A stretch of 64,000 nt of DNA from the NCBI GenBank assembly GCA_964016885.1, contig OZ024753.1, forward strand, positions 620,001 to 684,000, written 5' to 3'. Below, one piece after another: positions 11,329 to 62,639 of this stretch. The stretch is from Eledone cirrhosa (taxonomy: Eukaryota). How positions within the stretch are numbered: position 1 is the first letter of the stretch; the number at the start of each line of letters is the position of its first letter. Under the pieces are notes generated by a model. The model saw only the letters and a program-made list of their open reading frames with translations, did not search any database and was not told the DNA's origin. The position numbers were made by a program, and so were the translations under genes.

Positions 11329-11448
11329 AAAAAATGTGTGGATGTGAGAAAACATTCTATACAGATCATGTATTCGAAAAGTGCACCTGGTATATATAAA
11401 AAGGATTTTTATAACATGTACAAAACATTTTTTGTACATGTTATAAAG

Positions 11449-11480
<32 letters not shown>

Positions 11481-12134: not shown

Positions 12135-12790
12135 GGTAAGATGGAGAGGTGCCTCTGCAAGACTAATTGCAGGCAAACACCGTAGTTATAAACTTTTCTG
12201 GGTGGGTAATGATGACGGGTTAGGTGGGGTGGGCATATTACTGGCTGAGAGATGGATCAATAAGACAATAGAGGTAGTTAGAGTTAGTTAGAGGTAGTTA
12301 GAGTTAGTGATAGAATAATTAAGCTTAGATTAGCTGTAGGCAAGAGACTACTGACAATCATCTCTGCCTATGCTCCCCAGGCAGGCCTAGGTAAAGAAGA
12401 GAAAGACTGCTTTTATGAGCAATTTTTACAAACAGCCTCAATGACAGAGGACAAAGACATCGTTATGCTAGCGGGGGACTTCAATGGACATGTTGGACAG
12501 CTCCAGGATGGATACACTGGAGTACATGGTGGGCACAGTTATGGCTCAAGAAATGAAGAAGGAGTGAGGCTTCTTGAATTTTGTGATGCAAATGCACTAA
12601 CCATTTGCAACACTAACTGGAAGCTAAAAGACCTTTCATTAAAATATATATTTAGCAAAGCCCTTCAAGATGTGTATGACGAAAAAGAAGACGATTTAGA
12701 GTTATATGACATATATGACAACTGGAATTTCTTGCGTGACAACTTACTGCAGGCTACTGAAGAAACTTGTGGTTGGGGCAGAAAATAGTG
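12135..12790 (+). mobile_element. RTE-clade LINE fragment (APE endonuclease)
   Basis: RWRGASARL..GGVGILL..VSDRII..IISAYAPQ..AGDFNGHVG..YGSRNEEGVRLLEFC..ICNT. Confidence 0.9.
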
Positions 12791-19672: not shown

Positions 19673-20354
19673 GACTAGAGCAAAATATAAATGAAGTGCA
19701 CCAGATGGTCTTGGTATTAAACCTCCGATCTTATGATCATGTGTCAAACACCCTAATCTTTAGAAAAATATATAAAGTGATAATTTACATTGTAAGCACC
19801 AATTTGAGACAGAAATGAGAATTCATGGAAGTTGAAGCTGTTATCAATTGCCTGCCAAGCAGCAATGTTACTAAAAACCTGTCATTCTATATTTTCATAT
19901 TAGGTACTAAAAATTATTTCTGGTGATATAAATGTTCTATTCCATCTGCACATGATAAAGTCATTAGTTATTTAACACTAACAGGATAAGTTATTCTAAA
20001 AATATCCAATAGAGGGAGCTGTCTCATGTTTCAGATAAGAAATAATCACCATGAAGTAACTACTAAAAATTTAGTAAAGTTAAATTAATGATATACCAAT
20101 CAATTCACAAAGTTATATTACTGATATCACAACGAGTTTATATCACAATGTTATTTTACACATATCAAATATCCCAGTGAAGTTACAGTGTTATAATACA
20201 GATATCAAATATCACAAAGAATTTATATAATATGATAGATTTAATTATATAATAAACAACACAATATAATTATTCCATTACTCAAGGTTTCGCGAAGTCA
20301 GATGATTCCTACAGAAACGTCTCGTTTCGTTCATCAGATGAAATATCTGATAGA

Positions 20355-21235: not shown

Positions 21236-22093
21236 TTATCACTGTCAAAAATAGATTTTGTTCAATATGTAACTAGGCCCTTAATAATAGTAATAGTTTC
21301 TGATTTAGGCACAAGACCAGCAATTTATGGGGAGAGAAAAGTCAATTACATTGACCCCATTTCATGACTGGTACTTTATTTTATCAACCCTGGAAGGATG
21401 AAAGACAAAGTTGACCTCACTGGCATTTGAACTCAGACAGTAGAAAGCCATAACTAAATACCACAAAGTATTTTGTTTGATGCTCTACTGATTTCTGCCA
21501 ATCCACAGAATGATGACAACCACGATGATAATTATTTCTAACATTAGCAGAAGGATAGGGGAAATGGCTTGGTCAGAAGAAAAAGGGCAGTACCCATGAC
21601 TTTTTCAGGACCTTAAAGGCAGATGTGAGGAAAGGAGTAAATTATCCTTTGGCCAGAGACCTGGCCAAAATGCTTGCAGCAGTGTGGACTTCACTAGTAA
21701 TATAATATAATATAATATAATTAAAATTATTGTGTACAGTGCTCAGATGCACTACAACTCATCAAAGGTGCATCGTATAGTACATAGAATAATGTTCAAA
21801 TGTCAGGAAAATGAACAGTATAGGAGTCATGATATATACACAGATACATGCGTGTGTATAGAGGGGGGCTATCAGGTGTAGTGTTGGCAAATTTCAGGAA
21901 GCATGGAAGTTTTGAAGGATGCAGTGTCCTGACAGTTAACAACAGATGCAGGTAGCTGGTTCCATGCTTCAGCTGTATTTTGTTTTAAATCTGCACATAT
22001 CCAAGATGCTGCATAATGAGATTGAAACTAAATCTATGAAGTTGTAGATTGAACTATTAAACCACGCAGTCTAGCTTGTTGTGATGTTCATCC

Positions 22094-22129
<36 letters not shown>

Positions 22130-22140
22130 GGATGAACATC

Positions 22141-22172
<32 letters not shown>

Positions 22173-22221
22173 CATCATCATCATTATCGTTTAACGTCCA
22201 TGTTCCACGCTTGCATGGGTT

Positions 22222-22275
<54 letters not shown>

Positions 22276-22319
22276 AACCCATGCAAGCGTGGAACATGGA
22301 CGTTAAACGATAATGATGA

Positions 22320-22356
<37 letters not shown>

Positions 22357-28969: not shown

Positions 28970-29040
<71 letters not shown>

Positions 29041-29129
29041 CATGTGAACAGGTGTGTTCTCCTGTTGCCATGGAATGTCATAATACCTTGATGTGTGATT
29101 CCAAGAAACAGTGGGTTACCTTTCTGATC
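29041..29129 (-). CDS. FRMD5: FRMD3/5-like exon: DQKGNPLFLGITHQGIMTFHGNRRTHLFT(W)
   Basis: 89 nt, ttttaacag|GATC...ACATG|gtaagt, phase 0->2. Start of the F3 (PH-like) lobe. Confidence 0.93.
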
Positions 29130-29224
29130 CTGTTAAAATAAATAGATTTTTCTTGTAGTTGTATTTTTAAACTTCAAATATTAAAATTATATGCAGAAAA
29201 TCAACATTGAATGTTCATAAATAG

Positions 29225-39905: not shown

Positions 39906-41413
39906 GTGCATGCTATTATTACACTATATATATATAGGTACACAGCGAATCAAACTTGAAACGATGAAACGCAAGGTTGACTTCAGTGCAGCGGATTATA
40001 TGGGTATAGTGTTCTCTGGGGTCTTACTTTCCTCAGAGAACCACCTTTCCCTTTATACACTATATATAGATACACAGTGCAATATATTGTCATATGGGTA
40101 TAGTGTTCTCTGGGGTCTTACTTTTCCTCAGGTTTCATTCACTTTCAGTGCCCTGAACTTTTTTATACTACTCTCAAATGTATGAGCAAGCTACTGCTGG
40201 GTATCATGGAGGAGAAAATGATAGCCAAGGAGGTCGGTGAATGAGGATGCTGTGGAGAAACCTGTTATGATTTTATACCAAAGCCAAACCTTGTTTTATC
40301 AAGGAAAATCGTATTAAAACACTTGTTGTTGATGTATATGCATCATACAATGTTCTACACTCTTTTGTAACTAATTCACTGAATATTCGGCACCATTTTC
40401 TTATTATGGCAACCATGACTCTCACCTTCACTGCTAATTAAGTCACCTAGGTAACAGAAGCTATCAACTATTTCTAGGAATTTATTTCATCTATGTTCTT
40501 AATGCTAACTACATATCTTGTATTTCTGCCATACATTAGTCTAGCTTCTCTGACAGTCTACTTATGATACAATATATCTTGTGGCTATAGTTTACATTGA
40601 GTATATTTATACGTAACTCCTATCTACACCATTTCTGCATTATATACACATATACATACATTAAAATCTGTAAACATACATATGCATGTAGACACAGGAA
40701 GCTACACACACACACACACAGCTCTCTACAAAAATACATACACCATATACACCTTTCATAGTTCTAGCAAAGACTATATACTACTACAGTGACTACTGAG
40801 AGAGAGAGAGAACCTGTAGGTGACCTACACAGACAGACAGCTGTCAGGTTGGTATGGCAACCGGCTTTATTTAAATACTAGCAGTACAGCAGTACAGTGA
40901 GAGAGAGGAGAGGAGGGGGAGGGGGGGAGAAAGTGAAAGACAGTAGTAATGGTAGAAGGAAGAGAAAGAGAATGAAATGTAGGAGGGGGAGGAGGGGGGG
41001 GGGTAGAGTAAGGAAAGAGTTAAAGAGTGGAAATGAGAGAGAAGGACTAATGAGAGAAAGAAAGGGAGAGATAGAGCGAGAGAGAGAAAGAGGTAATGAA
41101 ACACTGCTTATTATTTTAGTAATATATTTTTTTTAATTATCAAGCTTGTGTTTGGAACAAAAATTTTCTTAAATAAAATTCTAGGCAGTTTGGTATGAAA
41201 AGGGTTACTATATAGTACTATATGGTACTATATAGTACTATATAGTACTACATGGTACTATATGGTACTATATAGCACTATATAGTACTACATGGTACTA
41301 TATAGTAAAATATGGTAACATAGAAGTTGTGAATAATCACAGTGTGGGCTAAGTTGTATATCATCACTACTGGTCTATGTAATATATACAACAGAACTGG
41401 AGGAGTAACTTAC

Positions 41414-41511
41414 ACTGTATTATGTAGGCTGCCAAAAGGTTTGCATCACTTGGGGGACACAGTAAACGGCCATGATGAAGATCTCTTCGGAGTTGCAAGA
41501 ATAAGCAGTAT
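41414..41511 (-). CDS. FRMD5: FRMD3/5-like exon: (R)[32 protein letters not shown](S)
   Basis: 98 nt, tttcgtcag|ATAC...CAGT|gtaagt, phase 2->1, in frame with both neighbours. LQ..RDL.HGRLLC is typical of FRMD3/5. Confidence 0.95.
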
Positions 41512-41559
41512 CTGACGAAATAATAATAATAATGATGATGATAATAATAATAATAATTT

Positions 41560-42540
41560 TTTCTACGTTAGGCACAAGGCCAGCAATTACCCAGTGCATT
41601 ACTGGTACTTTATTTTATCGACCCCGTAAGGATGAAAGGCAAAGTTAACCTCGACAGGATTTGAACTCAGACCATAAAGGGCCGTAACTCTTTGCTGCAA
41701 AGCATGGCGTCCAACCCTCTACCGGTACTGCCAATCCAACATGATATTGATTTCAAGGCCAATAATTTGGGGAGAGGGGAAAGTCGATTAAATCGACCCC
41801 AGTACATTACTGGTGCTTTATTTTATTGATCCCGTAAGGAATGAAAGGCAAAGTTAACCTTGGCAGGATTTGAACTCAGAACGAAAAGGGCTGTAACTCT
41901 ATGCTGTAAAGCATGGCGTCAGACGTTCTACTGATACTGCCAATTCCCCACCCCCAGTGCCAGATTTACCATAATAATAATAATGATTTCCACTATAGGC
42001 ACAGGGCCACCAATTTTGAGAGGAGGAGAAAGTCAATTAAATCAACCCCAGTGTGTGACTGGTACTTTATTTTATTGACCCTGTAAGGATGAAAGGCAAA
42101 GTTAACCTCAGCAGGATTTGAACTCAGAACGAAAAGGGTCGTAACTATGTTTAAAAGCATATTGTCCGACGCTCTAACAATTCTGCCAATCCATTGCCCC
42201 CAGTGCCTGATTTATCATTGTGCTTAGGTGTGCTTGGCCAAAAATTTTTTTTTTTTCTGGGCTAAGTAAAGGGCCTCACAACTTAACTAGCACAGAACCT
42301 CATTTGTCCTAAATCTGGCACTAACCGCCCTATATATATATAGAGAGAGATAATAATTGTTTCTACTTTTGGCACAAGGCCAGCAACTACCCAGTACATT
42401 ACTGGTACTTTATTTTATCGACCCCGTAAGGATGAAAGGCAAAGTTAACCTCGACGGCATTTGAACTCAGACTGTAAAGGGACGTAACTATGCTAGAAAG
42501 CATGGCGTCCAACCCTCTACCGATACTACCAATCCACCGA
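41560..42540 (-). mobile_element. Head-to-tail cluster of four copies of the same SINE filling the intron between two exons
   Basis: Repeated ggcacaaggccagcaatt..tactggtactttattttatcgacccc..gaaaggcaaagttaacc..gatttgaactcag blocks. Confidence 0.9.
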
Positions 42541-42566
42541 TAGATATTAATAACTTGATGTCGTAC

Positions 42567-42645
42567 CTTGTTATTTCTTCATGAAGAGACATGGGATCTT
42601 CTGGGTAAAACTTCACACGGAAGCACAGCACCATTGGATTGACAC
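42567..42645 (-). CDS. FRMD5: FERM-domain protein (FRMD3/FRMD5-like), exon at end of F1 lobe: [26 protein letters not shown](R)
   Basis: 79-nt exon, tttccag|GTGTC...ACAAG|gtacga, phase 1->2. [16 protein letters not shown] is the FERM F1/F2 signature as recalled for FRMD5 ([21 protein letters not shown]). The symbol is a family-level call. Confidence 0.95.
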
Positions 42646-42711
42646 CTGGAAATTTAAGAGATAAGGAACCATAAGATATTTATTTCTATGTACAAACAAC
42701 TGAATACTTAC

Positions 42712-43176: not shown

Positions 43177-43242
<66 letters not shown>

Positions 43243-43282
43243 GTAGTTCCACAACTGCGGATATAACTCACCAGTGTTCTAC

Positions 43283-43330
<48 letters not shown>

Positions 43331-43405
43331 AGATAAATTAACGGAGCCATAGACTCTTGTTATTCCCTGTAAATTATGTCTCAAAGGAAAAGGAATCCTG
43401 AGCTC

Positions 43406-43757
43406 TATAAAATACAATATGTAGAAAGGGTAACACGCTAGAGAGAGAGAGAGAGAGCATGTGCCATCAATAAAACAGGGAAACCACCAGTGTATGGAAT
43501 CTATAATCTATGGAAGGCAGGGTAGACACACAATAATTAAAAATATAAATTAAAATGTATATACGCACCTCTACAACTATATAGTTGTAGAGGTGCGTAT
43601 GCACATTTTAATTTATATTTTTAATTATTGTGTCTACCCTGCCTTCCATAGATTATAGATTCCATACACTGGTGGTTTCCCTGTTTTATTGATGGCACAT
43701 GCTCTCTCTCTCTCTCTCTCTCTAGCGTGTTACCCTTTCTACATATTGTATTTTATA
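43406..43757. repeat. Loopless palindrome with ~175-bp arms
   Basis: Centre ctacaactat|atagttgtag at 43580/43581. Arms differ by a few substitutions and in microsatellite length. Confidence 0.95.
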
Positions 43758-43868
43758 TCTATATATCTATAATAGTAGGATACTAGTGGGTTATATCCGT
43801 AGTAATAGAGCACTCAGTCCATGGGACGAGTTTGGTAGAAGTAGTTCCACAACAGTTAGTTCACCATT

Positions 43869-43911
43869 ACCGAGAACAATTGTTTCACCTTATTCGGATC
43901 ATCAGCTCGGT
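43869..43911 (-). ncRNA. Minimal type-I hammerhead ribozyme motif
   Basis: Minus strand ACCGAG-CTGATGA-TCCGAATAAGGT-GAAAC-AATT-GTT-CTCGGT. 6-bp stem I, short stem II, palindromic stem III. Confidence 0.7.
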
Positions 43912-44074
43912 CTGATGATCCCAATAAGATGAAACAATTGTTCTCGGTAATGGTGAACTAACTGTTGTGGAACTATATATATATACACATGTAACAATAT
44001 TTTAGAAGACTACAGCAATGCAAATAAATCATTAAATGTTAATAATAACAATAACAAATGTGTTGGAATGTTAC

Positions 44075-44134
44075 CTTGGAAATATTTTAATTGCTCTTTG
44101 ATATTTCAGGGTGGGTGGGGGAGAATCCCCTTTT
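44075..44134 (-). CDS. Candidate 60-nt exon, open only in phase 2: KGDSPPPTLKYQRAIKIFP
   Basis: tcttagttctttag|AAAAGG...TCCAAG|gtaaca. Stops in phases 0 and 1. Confidence 0.3.
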
Positions 44135-44699
44135 CTAAAGAACTAAGACATTATTATTATTGTATTACTGTAGGCTGGTTAATTTGAGGAGGAGAGGGAG
44201 TGCCTTTCCCCAGGGTGCCCTTGAAATGTCAGGTGGTTCAGGATTGGTGAGGTACCTTAGCTTGTTCGCCCCCACCCCTCCCCTGTTGGGGGATTTATTT
44301 TGTTATATTTTTATATATTTTAATTTTTGTTTGTTTTTGTTATTGTGTATTTTTACTAGATTTTATTGTAACCCCCCCCCCCACTCTCCCTGTCTTTGTA
44401 TTGTCCCCTATATGTCAGCCCTTGTGTCTAATAAATGAAACCATTATTATTATTATCATTATTAAAATAAAGTACCAGAAATGCACTGGGGTAATTGCTG
44501 GCCTTGTGCCTATACTAGAAATTATTATTATTATAATAAATAAAGAAATCATTATTATTATATAAACTACACTTTAATTTATAGAATATTAATGTTAAAT
44601 ATATTATTATTTTTACTATTATCTGACTGAGAACTGGTTTTGACTGTGGCCATCCTATCCAACCTATGAAAGAATGGAAACACAACCAGCTCCTTAACC

Positions 44700-45190: not shown

Positions 45191-46139
45191 AATCTTTGAG
45201 ATTTTGATATTAAACGATAATTGAGATGAAACTGAGCCGTAAGTAATACTATAAGATAAATCTAGCCTTATGGATTCTACCAACACATCCACCACTTCTA
45301 ACCCCCAGCACTAGATTTCACATAATAATAATTGTTTCTATTTTAGGCACAGGGCCAGCAATTTTGGGGGAGGGGAAAGTCGATCAAATCGACCAGTGCA
45401 TTACTGGTACTTTATTTTATCGATCCTGTAAGGATGAAAGGCAAAGCTAACCTCAGCAAGATTTGAACTCAGACAGTAAAGGGCCGTAACTATGCTACAA
45501 AGCATAGTGTCTGACGTTGCCAATCCACCACCCCACATAATTGTTTCTACTTTTGGCACAAGGCCAGCAATTACTCCAGTGCATTACTGGTACTTTATTT
45601 TATCAAAGGATGAAAGGCAAAGCTAACCTCAGCGGGATTTGAACTCAGACCGTAAAGGGGCGTAACTATGCTGCAAAGCATGGTCTCCAATGCTCTACCA
45701 ATACTGCCAATCCCCCGCCCGTGGGTAATAATAATAATAGGGCAATGGCAATAGTAGACAATGCCGATGACAGTGGTAATGAACACATAATAACACTGTA
45801 GTTTAAGCACACATGATGATGATGATGATGATGGCAATGTTTTTTGATAGCGATACACACAAAATGACGCAACCTCTTCAAACAAAAGTAGTTAATAATT
45901 AGTCACCATTAATGAAGTGGCTAGCACTACTTAGTTAATGAAGCAGATGGAAGAAGAACAAAACAAACTTAACATGAAATAATTACAGAGAAAAAGAACA
46001 TGACGATGATGATAATGGTTTCTGATTTAGGCAGAAGGCCAACAATTTTAGGGGAGGGAAAGTTGATTAAATCGAACCCAGTTTGTTACTGGTGCTTATT
46101 TTATGAACCCCATAAGGATGAAAGGCAAAGCTAACCTAG

Positions 46140-47040
46140 GTTGGCAGGAGTAAGAAAGATAAAGGTCTTAAACAGTGATGAAGCAAAGGAAAGGGGGGAG
46201 AATTTAAACAAGACAGACAGAAAGACACATTGAATAGATGGAAGAAAAAAAAAAAATGTCTGGTCAATTCTTATATGAAATAATTGAGACAGTTGACAAA
46301 GATAAAAACTGGGAATGGACTAGGAAAAGTGACTTAAGAGTTGAAACTGAGGCCCTTATTTTTGCAGCACAGGAACAGGTACTAAGAACGAACTATATAA
46401 AGTTCAATACAGATAAGTCAGTGAATTCCCCACTTTGTAGGCTGTAAGATGCTTGCTCAGAAAGAGTACAAGAGAAGGTACGACAACATTGCCAGATTGG
46501 TTCATTGGAAGCTCTGTCATAAGTATGACATGAGCAGAAGTGAGAAATGGTAGGAATAGCAACTGGAACGGGTGTCTGAAAATGAACAGTATAAGATCTT
46601 GTGAGACCTGACCATCCAGTGCAACCATTTTATCAAGGGTAGAAAGCCTGACATTGTTGTCGTAGAAAAGAAGAACAAGGCATGTATTGTGGATATTGCT
46701 TCATCATGGGACCATAGGGTGAATGAAAAGGAAAGTGAGAAATACCAGGAGTTGAAGAGAGAAATCAGGAAACTGGAGAGTCAGACACATAGAAGTGGTA
46801 CCAATTGTGATTGGCTCACTGGGAGCAGTTAGTAAAAGGTTAGATGCATGGCTTGAGAAGCTAGGAATTACCATCAGGAGAGGATTGTTGCAGAAAACAG
46901 ACTTGCCTGAAACAGCAAGATTTCTAAGAAAGGTGTTGGAAAGTTGAAGAAAAAAGAATGACCCAAAGGACCTTTAGCCATCAGCTATGGCTTGCTCTTT
47001 TGGTATAATGTCAGGATAAAAATGTTACAAATAATAATAA
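46140..47040 (+). mobile_element. 5'-truncated R4/Dong-clade retrotransposon (zinc-knuckle remnant plus restriction-like endonuclease)
   Basis: ETEALIFAAQEQVLRTNY..CRL..YKRRYDNIARLVHWKLC..KPDIVV..VDIA..KYQELKREI..VVPIVIGSLG..LQKT..LRKVL. Ends in (TAA)n and truncates a SINE at its 5' junction. Confidence 0.88.
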
Positions 47041-61275: not shown

Positions 61276-61400
61276 GAATATATTAATAGACCCATAACAG
61301 GGTAGTAGAAGAGAGCCAGGAAGAGAGAAGAGGAGTCAAGCTGACTGACAAGGCTCAAAATTCACAAGTTTTTTTTTTCTTTTTTCCTTTTTATACTCAC

Positions 61401-61451
61401 TTGCATTGTCATGGATGACTTTGTCATTTTTCTTTGCAGAAACTATAAGTT
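61401..61451 (-). CDS. Candidate 51-nt exon: phase-1 insert xLIVSAKKNDKVIHDNA, or start exon MTKSSMTMQ
   Basis: tttcatattttag|AACTT...TGCAA|gtgagt. Good splice sites, no homology recognised. Confidence 0.5.
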
Positions 61452-62639
61452 CTAAAATATGAAATAAAACATTTAGATATGTCTTTCACTAAAGACTATG
61501 GATGGTCAATATCCAAAGTGTTTAAAACATTGGGCTAAGAAAATGATTTTAAAAATAGTCCCCACAATCGAAATAAAATAGTTGAAAAAATCTGATAAAG
61601 TACTCATGGAGACTGAAAAAATTGGACAGAGCCATTGTGTGAAATCAAAAAGCATATCTCAGGCTTAAATCTTCTAAAAAAAGGCTATTAGCAGCTACAA
61701 ACTCTTTGGCATATTGTTGAAATGCCCTTACCTATCACATGATGAGAGATATGTGGTTTGATTTCCCCACAGGCATCTATATCCACTTTTTTTTCCTCTT
61801 TGAAAGTACTTTACCAGATTTTTTCAGTTATATAGTGATTAACTATAAAGTTGAAAAACACTCGCTTGAGAGGGGTTTTCTTCTCTGAAGACCTTCTGCT
61901 GTGCAGTTCTCCTGAGAGTTTCTTACCACTATATCAACTGATATTATAGGATGACTATATTTTAAAATTTCAAATTTCCCAATGCTTTGTAAATCAACCG
62001 CATGTTGAAAATAAAATTTAAAAGTCAATATTTTACAATTCAAGGGCTCCTGTGTTAACTGAAAATAAAGGCTGTGGAAAATGAAAGTAAAATTATGAAA
62101 ACTACAATGAAGAAATTGATAAATTGATATCAATACTTTCAAATAAGCAAACAAAGATATGTTTTTGAATCATTGGATTCATTATATATATATATAGATG
62201 TTAGAGTTAAGAAGTGTACTTTGTAGACATGAAACTTTTGATACCAACCTGGCCCAAACTATGAAATAAAACTCTTTATTTTCAAGGGTTCCTATTTAAA
62301 TTTAAATCTTATAAAAAAAATTTATTTAAGAGTAGTATGCCATCTTAGTAAAAAAATTAATAATTTTAGAAAGTCTCTCGAAATTCTTCATTGTTAAATG
62401 AAATACAATGTATATTAGAAATATGGTCAGAAACGGGTTAACACATTATTGTAGTTTTGCCAAATTTGCTTTCATTTTCCCTGTACCAATAACAAGGAAT
62501 TACAAAAATAAAACGCAATAATTAATAATGATTAGATGAAATTAATAACATGAAATAATTCTGGGTTACAAGGAATATTATTAAACAGTGTGTAACAGAG
62601 AGTACTGATTTTGAAATAAAAGAAAGTAAATTTGAAATA

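Follow-up and report, generated by a model that had tools for sequence, protein, structure and literature searches.

The hammerhead palindrome at 43842-43975 of this Eledone cirrhosa sequence is very probably a short, 5'-truncated insertion of a Penelope-like element (PLE) with Hydra-clade motifs, in which the pseudo-LTR (pLTR) end of the element stands next to an inverted copy likely made during integration. The hammerhead ribozyme (HHR) would accordingly be the element's own; it is predicted to be locked in a long hairpin and has no likely role for the host. We call the window the whole stretch of 64,000 nucleotides that was analysed.

Structure of the palindrome

The palindrome is made of two inverted arms (43842-43905 and 43912-43975) around a 6-nt loop, ctcggt, and direct sequence comparison agrees on these points with an earlier note made from the sequence alone. 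That note also counted three mismatches between the arms and placed them all in stem/loop II. Only two are present (43888/43929 and 43895/43922), and both do fall in stem/loop II. Both substitutions are carried by the tail-less arm (at 43922 and 43929), one of them at a CpG. The idea that mismatches target stem II by design was rejected, since stem/loop II takes 25% of the arm mismatches of the family and two of two would fall there by chance with a probability of about 0.06. The idea that the arms are unusually alike was also rejected (P = 0.17 for two or fewer mismatches at the family rate). As minus-strand RNA, the sequence folds into a single hairpin of -109.4 kcal/mol (z = -25), and none of 200 shuffles was equally stable. 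The feature is larger than had been noted: it includes a 64-nt tail, it is bordered by (TA)n runs on either side, and it is a copy of a dispersed repeat (Table 1). No target-site duplication is discernible at the (TA)n runs that flank the window copy.

Table 1. Coordinates of the insertion, its ribozyme and the neighbouring host exons in the window
Feature	Position	Strand	Remarks
FERM_M exon of the host gene	41414..41511	-	RNA-like contigs of three runs cover its full length; tblastn 41519-41406
FRMD5-like host exon downstream of the element	42563..42646	-	tblastn; aa 100-127 of P0003, 96% identity
(TA)n target run, left side, degenerate	43758..43771	.	
PLE tail, 64 nt, on one arm only	43772..43835	-	longer copies continue into the 5' UTR and ORF start
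5'-truncated pLTR end (tail-bearing arm)	43836..43911	-	from helix I to the family's fixed end CTTCTA
Type I hammerhead	43869..43911	-	stem I of 6 bp, CUGAUGA-U, 2-bp stem II, U-GAAAC, palindromic helix III (ACAAUUGU), GUU site; layout matches Hydra-clade HHRs
Hairpin loop, 5' strand of stem I	43906..43911	.	exact junction recurs at 10 loci
Inverted, tail-less, 5'-truncated copy	43912..43975	+	starts at C3; substitutions 43922 and 43929 against the other arm
(TA)n target run, right side	43976..43985	.	
Probable upstream host exon	61399..61452	-	tblastn; aa 83-100 of P0003, 83% identity, E 0.002

A palindrome of this kind could be an assembly fold-back of a single arm. Among the contigs of four runs over 43335-44600, a set dominated by other repeat copies, none spans the hairpin, and a second, nearly perfect palindrome of 350 bp adjoins it. 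On the other hand, two sites differ between the arms here and the arms of the family differ by 8.6% on average; the inverted arm halts at the family's fixed end and is followed by (TA)n and unique flank; and the identical junction is found at nine other loci. The unequal arms, the family-defined ends and the nine sister junctions argue against a fold-back, and we give this reading next to no chance.

The dispersed repeat is abundant. A search of the species' own genome gave 3220 candidates, and all of the 40 that were scored, a set biased to look-alikes of the query, match nearly the full 231-nt query, palindrome included. The top 30 copies lie in (TA)n and have two fixed ends in common; their palindrome centre differs, and several carry the stem I strand on both arms. 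The exact 40-mer of the tail junction occurs in 139 copies genome-wide and the exact pattern of the ribozyme core in 658, the reversed-pattern control being 0 in both cases. Among copies picked only by their tail, the extent of 5' truncation varies, and some have an inverted copy while others do not. Nearby (43238-43285), 48 bp are left of another insertion of this PLE family; they sit between TA runs, the inverted end being joined to the tail end and the hammerhead lost. At L039, L107 and other loci, the flanks hold hammerhead-like motifs from other repeat families, so that several families bearing putative HHRs populate the genome.

The hammerhead motif

The minus-strand motif, from 43911 to 43869, reads ACCGAG-CUGAUGA-UCCGAAUAAGGU-GAAAC-AAUU-GUU-CUCGGU, with a predicted cut between 43875 and 43874. 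A structure-aware scan bears out the completeness of the motif as first described: it gave two matches in the window, the palindrome motif and a loose one at 20337, and none in 60 block shuffles. The second core in the plus arm does lack its own 5' stem I strand, the arm beginning at C3. Searching the palindrome sequence against Rfam at gathering thresholds gave no match. The invariant type I core (CUGANGA, GAAA and UH, with an open helix I) is present. A stable helix II closed by G10.1-C11.1 is not, and U.U plus two C-G pairs stand in its place; a U..U flanking stem II is also seen in many published Hydra HHRs (PMC8557442).

For the isolated 43-mer, stem I and the 2-bp stem II are predicted to form, stem III barely so (p about 0.015), whereas two such molecules could pair through the palindromic helix III (dimer, -7.0 kcal/mol, predicted). 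As a monomer, the hammerhead is thus predicted to be weak. Related ribozymes have been described in similar terms: a metazoan minimal PLE hammerhead is reported as inactive as a monomer (Cervera and De la Pena 2014, PMC4209133), and that of an Anolis PLE is described as requiring the element's protein, with no RNA-seq ends reported at its cut site (PMC11167929).

Subfamily variation within the motif is limited to N7, loop II and loop III, the remaining variable columns being CpG sites, a pattern that would be expected of master elements whose fold stayed functional. After insertion, the picture is that of plain decay. In 69 arm pairs (4 badly aligned pairs having been dropped), the 11 core positions diverge at 25 of 550 sites (4.5%) versus 93 of 1740 in the flank (5.3%; p = 0.51), and the motif is intact in both arms of 8 pairs, in one arm of 26 and in neither of 35. 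The ribozyme cores decay like their flanks once inserted and are not conserved.

A Penelope-like parent element

The family leads to a parent through its longer copies. Locus L056 extends upstream into the end of a GIY-YIG-type ORF, and conversely, in 26 of the 30 loci found by this ORF end, the window's hammerhead follows after about 200 nt. Two fixed 3' ends occur among the ORF-end loci, one at CTTCTA|(TA)n and the other 64 nt further on. The pLTR, the tail and the ATG follow each other in tandem order in L092 and L110 and partially in L093, so that an HHR and tail precede the ATG while an HHR follows the ORF in 26/30, which is the arrangement of a pseudo-LTR. The span from HHR to HHR, pieced together from separate copies, is about 2.3-2.4 kb, and the element is therefore short (<3 kb).

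The translations of 8 ORF-end copies show FDIVDFYP, YRDDG, CxCX5C, CxxC-EE and N...CPH. By eye, the CxCX5C linker is intact in L056 and in 2 of the 8 printed copies and degenerate in the others; CGLC-EE and N...CPH are present, and the absence of a Cys pair after VIY means that there is no CCHH. DKT, which the Hydra clade has in place of DKG, is found in 11 of 20 upstream loci; RWR occupies the position of RWK in 4 of these 20, and RWK is found in none. In the Atlas, the look-alikes (0.91-0.94) are clusters of HTH_animal, GIY-YIG and RVT_1. Pfam recognised no family in a 333-aa piece of the ORF or in three fragments of the endonuclease (EN) end, and a PDB search with pieces of the PLE ORF was blank. 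The parent is a PLE with reverse transcriptase (RT) and GIY-YIG endonuclease that inserts in (TA)n, the RT/EN call being a probable one drawn from the motifs, the Atlas look-alikes and a by-eye likeness to Hydra-1_Obim.

The marks of the Hydra clade are those given by Craig et al. 2021 (PMC8557442), and the (TA)n flanks and a sense HHR near the 3' end are among those present here. The same source lists Hydra-1_Obim from Octopus as an element of 2507 bp with a TA target, gives the published Hydra hammerheads as ctgangat-stem II-tgaa-ac..gt-t, and describes in Penelope-13_HM a hammerhead on both strands brought about by a 5'-truncated inverted copy.

Inverted arms and their junctions

Of the 139 tail-bearing copies, we took the first 100 (L031-L060 and L111-L179, the window included), of which 96 were scorable. 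An inverted 5'-truncated arm is found in 60 of the 96; a looser cut-off, which admits very short matches, gives 75/100 and was not adopted. The turn points are spread from -330 to +50 relative to C3, and among the tail-bearing copies no form is commoner than that with an inverted arm and a variable turn point. An inverted 5'-truncated copy with a one-sided tail is also the published geometry of PLE insertions (PMC8557442).

The 215-bp palindromic unit might have been a fixed non-autonomous element, copied whole from a MITE- or retrozyme-like master. The top 30 matches have common ends and a similar centre, and about a third of them share the same junction, as such a unit would; however, these matches were selected by the query, and unbiased copies turn anywhere within the range just given. 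One and the same junction, moreover, is seen with three subfamily alleles and may have the tail on either of its sides, and the locus holds no head-to-tail array of the retrozyme style. The spread of turn points and this mix of alleles and tails largely refute a fixed unit, which we regard as extremely improbable.

In 73 arm pairs from 129 loci (any copy that lacked a left end was dropped, and query-biased top matches are included), the arms are concordant at four non-CpG subfamily sites in 39/47, 43/48, 51/58 and 53/66 cases, against shuffled means of 18.7, 28.1, 28.0 and 31.4, and all four values exceed the maximum of 2000 shuffles each. Arms of one copy diverge by 8.6% and those of different copies by 12.5%. 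From the shared subfamily alleles, it follows that both arms come mostly from one template. The exact 26-nt junction of the window is found at 10 loci, the window included. These loci fall into three N7 classes; 3 of them have the tail on the ACCGAG side, 6 have it opposite and 1 lacks it. Since this junction comes with three N7 classes and a tail on either side, it would have originated repeatedly and independently.

A simple one-way snap-back does not, however, account for every copy. The longer arm is the inverted one in 32 of 75 copies and the tail-bearing one in 34 of 75, and some copies have discordant alleles between their arms, so that later deletion of the centre or the use of two templates must also occur. 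In the literature, the palindromic junctions of inverted PLE copies were read as self-priming (Arkhipova et al. 2013, PMC3846280), and for an Anolis PLE the tail is described as lying between two RT start sites, both target strands being cut and extended (PMC11167929).

Break points at helix I

The break points peak at -14 to -5 relative to C3, which is the 5' edge of helix I. Of the arms that reach this bin, 21 of 47 tail arms and 20 of 35 inverted arms end in it, against 0.06-0.19 in each 10-nt bin further downstream; the Fisher p values are 1e-6 for tail arms and 2e-8 for inverted arms, for a bin that was chosen post hoc and for positions taken from local alignments, which can run on through microhomology. 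At this same place, in 13 of 15 parent-like copies (L064-L088; one register-corrected), an AG preceded by a pyrimidine run lies directly 5' of the stem I strand, in the manner of a 3' splice site, the AG being part of a CAG in 8 copies and of a TCAG in 4. A site of this kind at the 5' end of helix I has been reported for the Penelope of D. virilis (PMC4209133). As the core starts with CTGA, the AG of the parent-like copies provides a short inverted microhomology on the two sides of the very strand that became the loop.

In the mechanism that we propose, the endonuclease of the element would nick a TA run, and reverse transcription would have two fixed sites at which it can start, so that one end carries the tail and the other does not. 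The new strand would then turn back, or be joined, at the inverted microhomology (AG/CT, up to TCAG/CTGA) flanking the 5' strand of helix I, a turn that would leave exactly this strand as the 6-nt loop. The clustering at helix I could reflect RT stalling, fold-back or later deletion. We put forward only tentatively, as a possibility that we hold to be on the doubtful side, that the hammerhead itself shapes PLE insertions, the RT stalling or turning at the 5' edge of helix I (at the AG/CT to TCAG/CTGA hairpin and its acceptor-like site) and routinely leaving self-masked ribozyme palindromes. If true, this would link two questions about PLEs, the role of their HHR and the origin of their inverted junctions. 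A literature search of limited depth found no description of break-point clustering at helix I of PLEs, which may nonetheless have been published.

The host gene and the masking of the ribozyme

The element lies in an intron of a FERM gene, in sense, as the earlier note had proposed. Pfam finds FERM_M (41370-41567, E 1.5e-7) and FERM_C (29040-29132) in minus-strand ORFs, and the best homologues of the gene are the FRMD5-like proteins of Argonauta and Octopus. A genome-wide search for FERM_M did not pick up this gene, whose exons came from Pfam on ORFs, a motif search and tblastn; the latter shows additional exons further down from 41519-41406 and, over the window, gives no match to aa 1-82 of P0003. 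The insertion is about 1.1 kb upstream of the exon that begins at 42646, in an intron of about 18.7 kb or more. The 18-codon stretch at 61399-61452 (minus strand) matches cephalopod FRMD5 isoforms and may be a small alternative exon. Around the FERM exons (41550-42530 and 45320-46140) lie several copies of a short interspersed repeat that is very abundant, and an ORF with a weak Exo_endo_phos_2 match (12288-12785, plus strand; E 0.001), probably a LINE fragment, is antisense in the gene.

It had been suggested that the antisense arm, transcribed first, sequesters the ribozyme, and that this explains how a host tolerates a self-cleaving motif in a sense intron. The first part is what the predictions give: in 400 nt of pre-mRNA context, the pairing probability of stem I is 0, and the long hairpin is predicted to form co-transcriptionally, ahead of the completion of the core. 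The second part finds no support, as the palindrome is the usual form of PLE insertion in this genome (60/96) and the core is not conserved (p = 0.51). Indeed, a head-to-head pair puts the antisense arm first on either strand, so the predicted masking needs no host-level explanation and the order carries no information about the host.

In its full form, this reading holds that an active sense hammerhead is tolerated through its antisense arm and could be released by A-to-I editing, tuning the FRMD5 pre-mRNA. Besides the sense, intronic position and the stem I probability of 0 predicted in context, it can draw on the intact core of the tail arm, both substitutions being in the other arm, and on the depletion of retrozyme copies in Xenopus introns (bioRxiv 10.64898/2026.07.22.740005). 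Yet neutral survival often leaves the core of the tail arm intact (in 23 of 69 pairs), no arrangement is commoner in the family and its antisense-first order is imposed by geometry, and the cores show no conservation after insertion. The monomer is predicted to be weak, in keeping with published PLE HHRs described as inactive alone or protein-assisted (PMC4209133, PMC11167929) and with the Anolis report of no RNA-seq ends at the cut site (PMC11167929), and opening a 62-bp helix of -109 kcal/mol would probably take very many edits. Rows of A>G in the contigs over 43335-44600 are differences between paralogues and do not count as editing sites. Nothing that we found points to selection at the locus, and we judge a host-relevant masking very unlikely. 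Since Xenopus introns are depleted of retrozyme copies (bioRxiv 10.64898/2026.07.22.740005), sense HHRs may carry some cost, and a population-level filter on sense intronic hammerheads is possible by analogy.

Significance

As a host regulatory device, the palindrome is most likely unimportant, being just one among hundreds to thousands of PLE ends in decay. What it offers is data on how PLEs integrate: it belongs to a large set of short inverted insertions, with arms mostly from one template and break points that cluster at helix I. This set bears on how the inverted repeats of PLEs form, which the published accounts leave open (PMC8557442, PMC3846280, PMC11167929). It also calls for caution in genome scans, where a ribozyme together with its own antisense copy is the expected footprint of PLEs.

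The window holds other palindromes. The adjoining one of 350 bp (43406-43757), nearly perfect, belongs to a different repeat family with 1375 candidates, about a dozen of the 40 scored being palindromic. Further perfect or near-perfect palindromes at 11391-11464, 22070-22153 and 22174-22323 are centred on or flanked by (TA)n, and head-to-head insertions in TA runs look common in the genome.

Comparison with known systems

The inverted-copy geometry of PLEs and the presence of an HHR on both strands are already known, and the Eledone element is a further family of a known type. With the Hydra-clade PLEs (PMC8557442), it shares a single ORF under 3 kb with a C-terminal GIY-YIG, the DKT, CxCX5C and CxxC/CxH motifs, the (TA)n targets and a sense 3' HHR of the form ctgangat-stem II-tgaa-ac..gt-t. 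In particular, its N-terminus is visibly similar to that of Hydra-1_Obim, and Penelope-13_HM has the same 5'-truncated inverted copy that places an HHR on both strands. It is nonetheless a separate family, with RWR for RWK and a different HHR sequence; its stem II is of 2 bp whereas the Hydra-clade table gives 3-7 bp, and it has a clear pLTR and a 64-nt tail whereas the published Hydra-clade tails are of 30-40 bp (PMC8557442).

The minimal PLE hammerheads (PMC4209133) have the same type I topology within a pLTR, the same extra nucleotide after A9, a small palindromic helix III suited to dimers, and dispersed truncated copies that include opposite-strand pairs; the Penelope of D. virilis also has the acceptor-like site at the 5' end of helix I. 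The Eledone motif differs from them in lacking the G10.1-C11.1 pair (U.U and then two C-G pairs) and in its short helix II, theirs being long, and its pair is directly fused whereas theirs lie 100-700 bp apart (PMC4209133). The Penelope of Adineta vaga (PMC3846280) likewise shows head-to-head inverted pLTRs with the tail on one of them and a junction palindrome read as self-priming, but in Eledone the junction lies on helix I of the hammerhead and no ORF separates the arms. Finally, the non-LTR retrozymes (bioRxiv 10.64898/2026.07.22.740005) are also non-coding, PLE-derived and equipped with a type I HHR; they are, however, head-to-tail tandem repeats, whereas the Eledone insertion is a head-to-head pair between TA runs.
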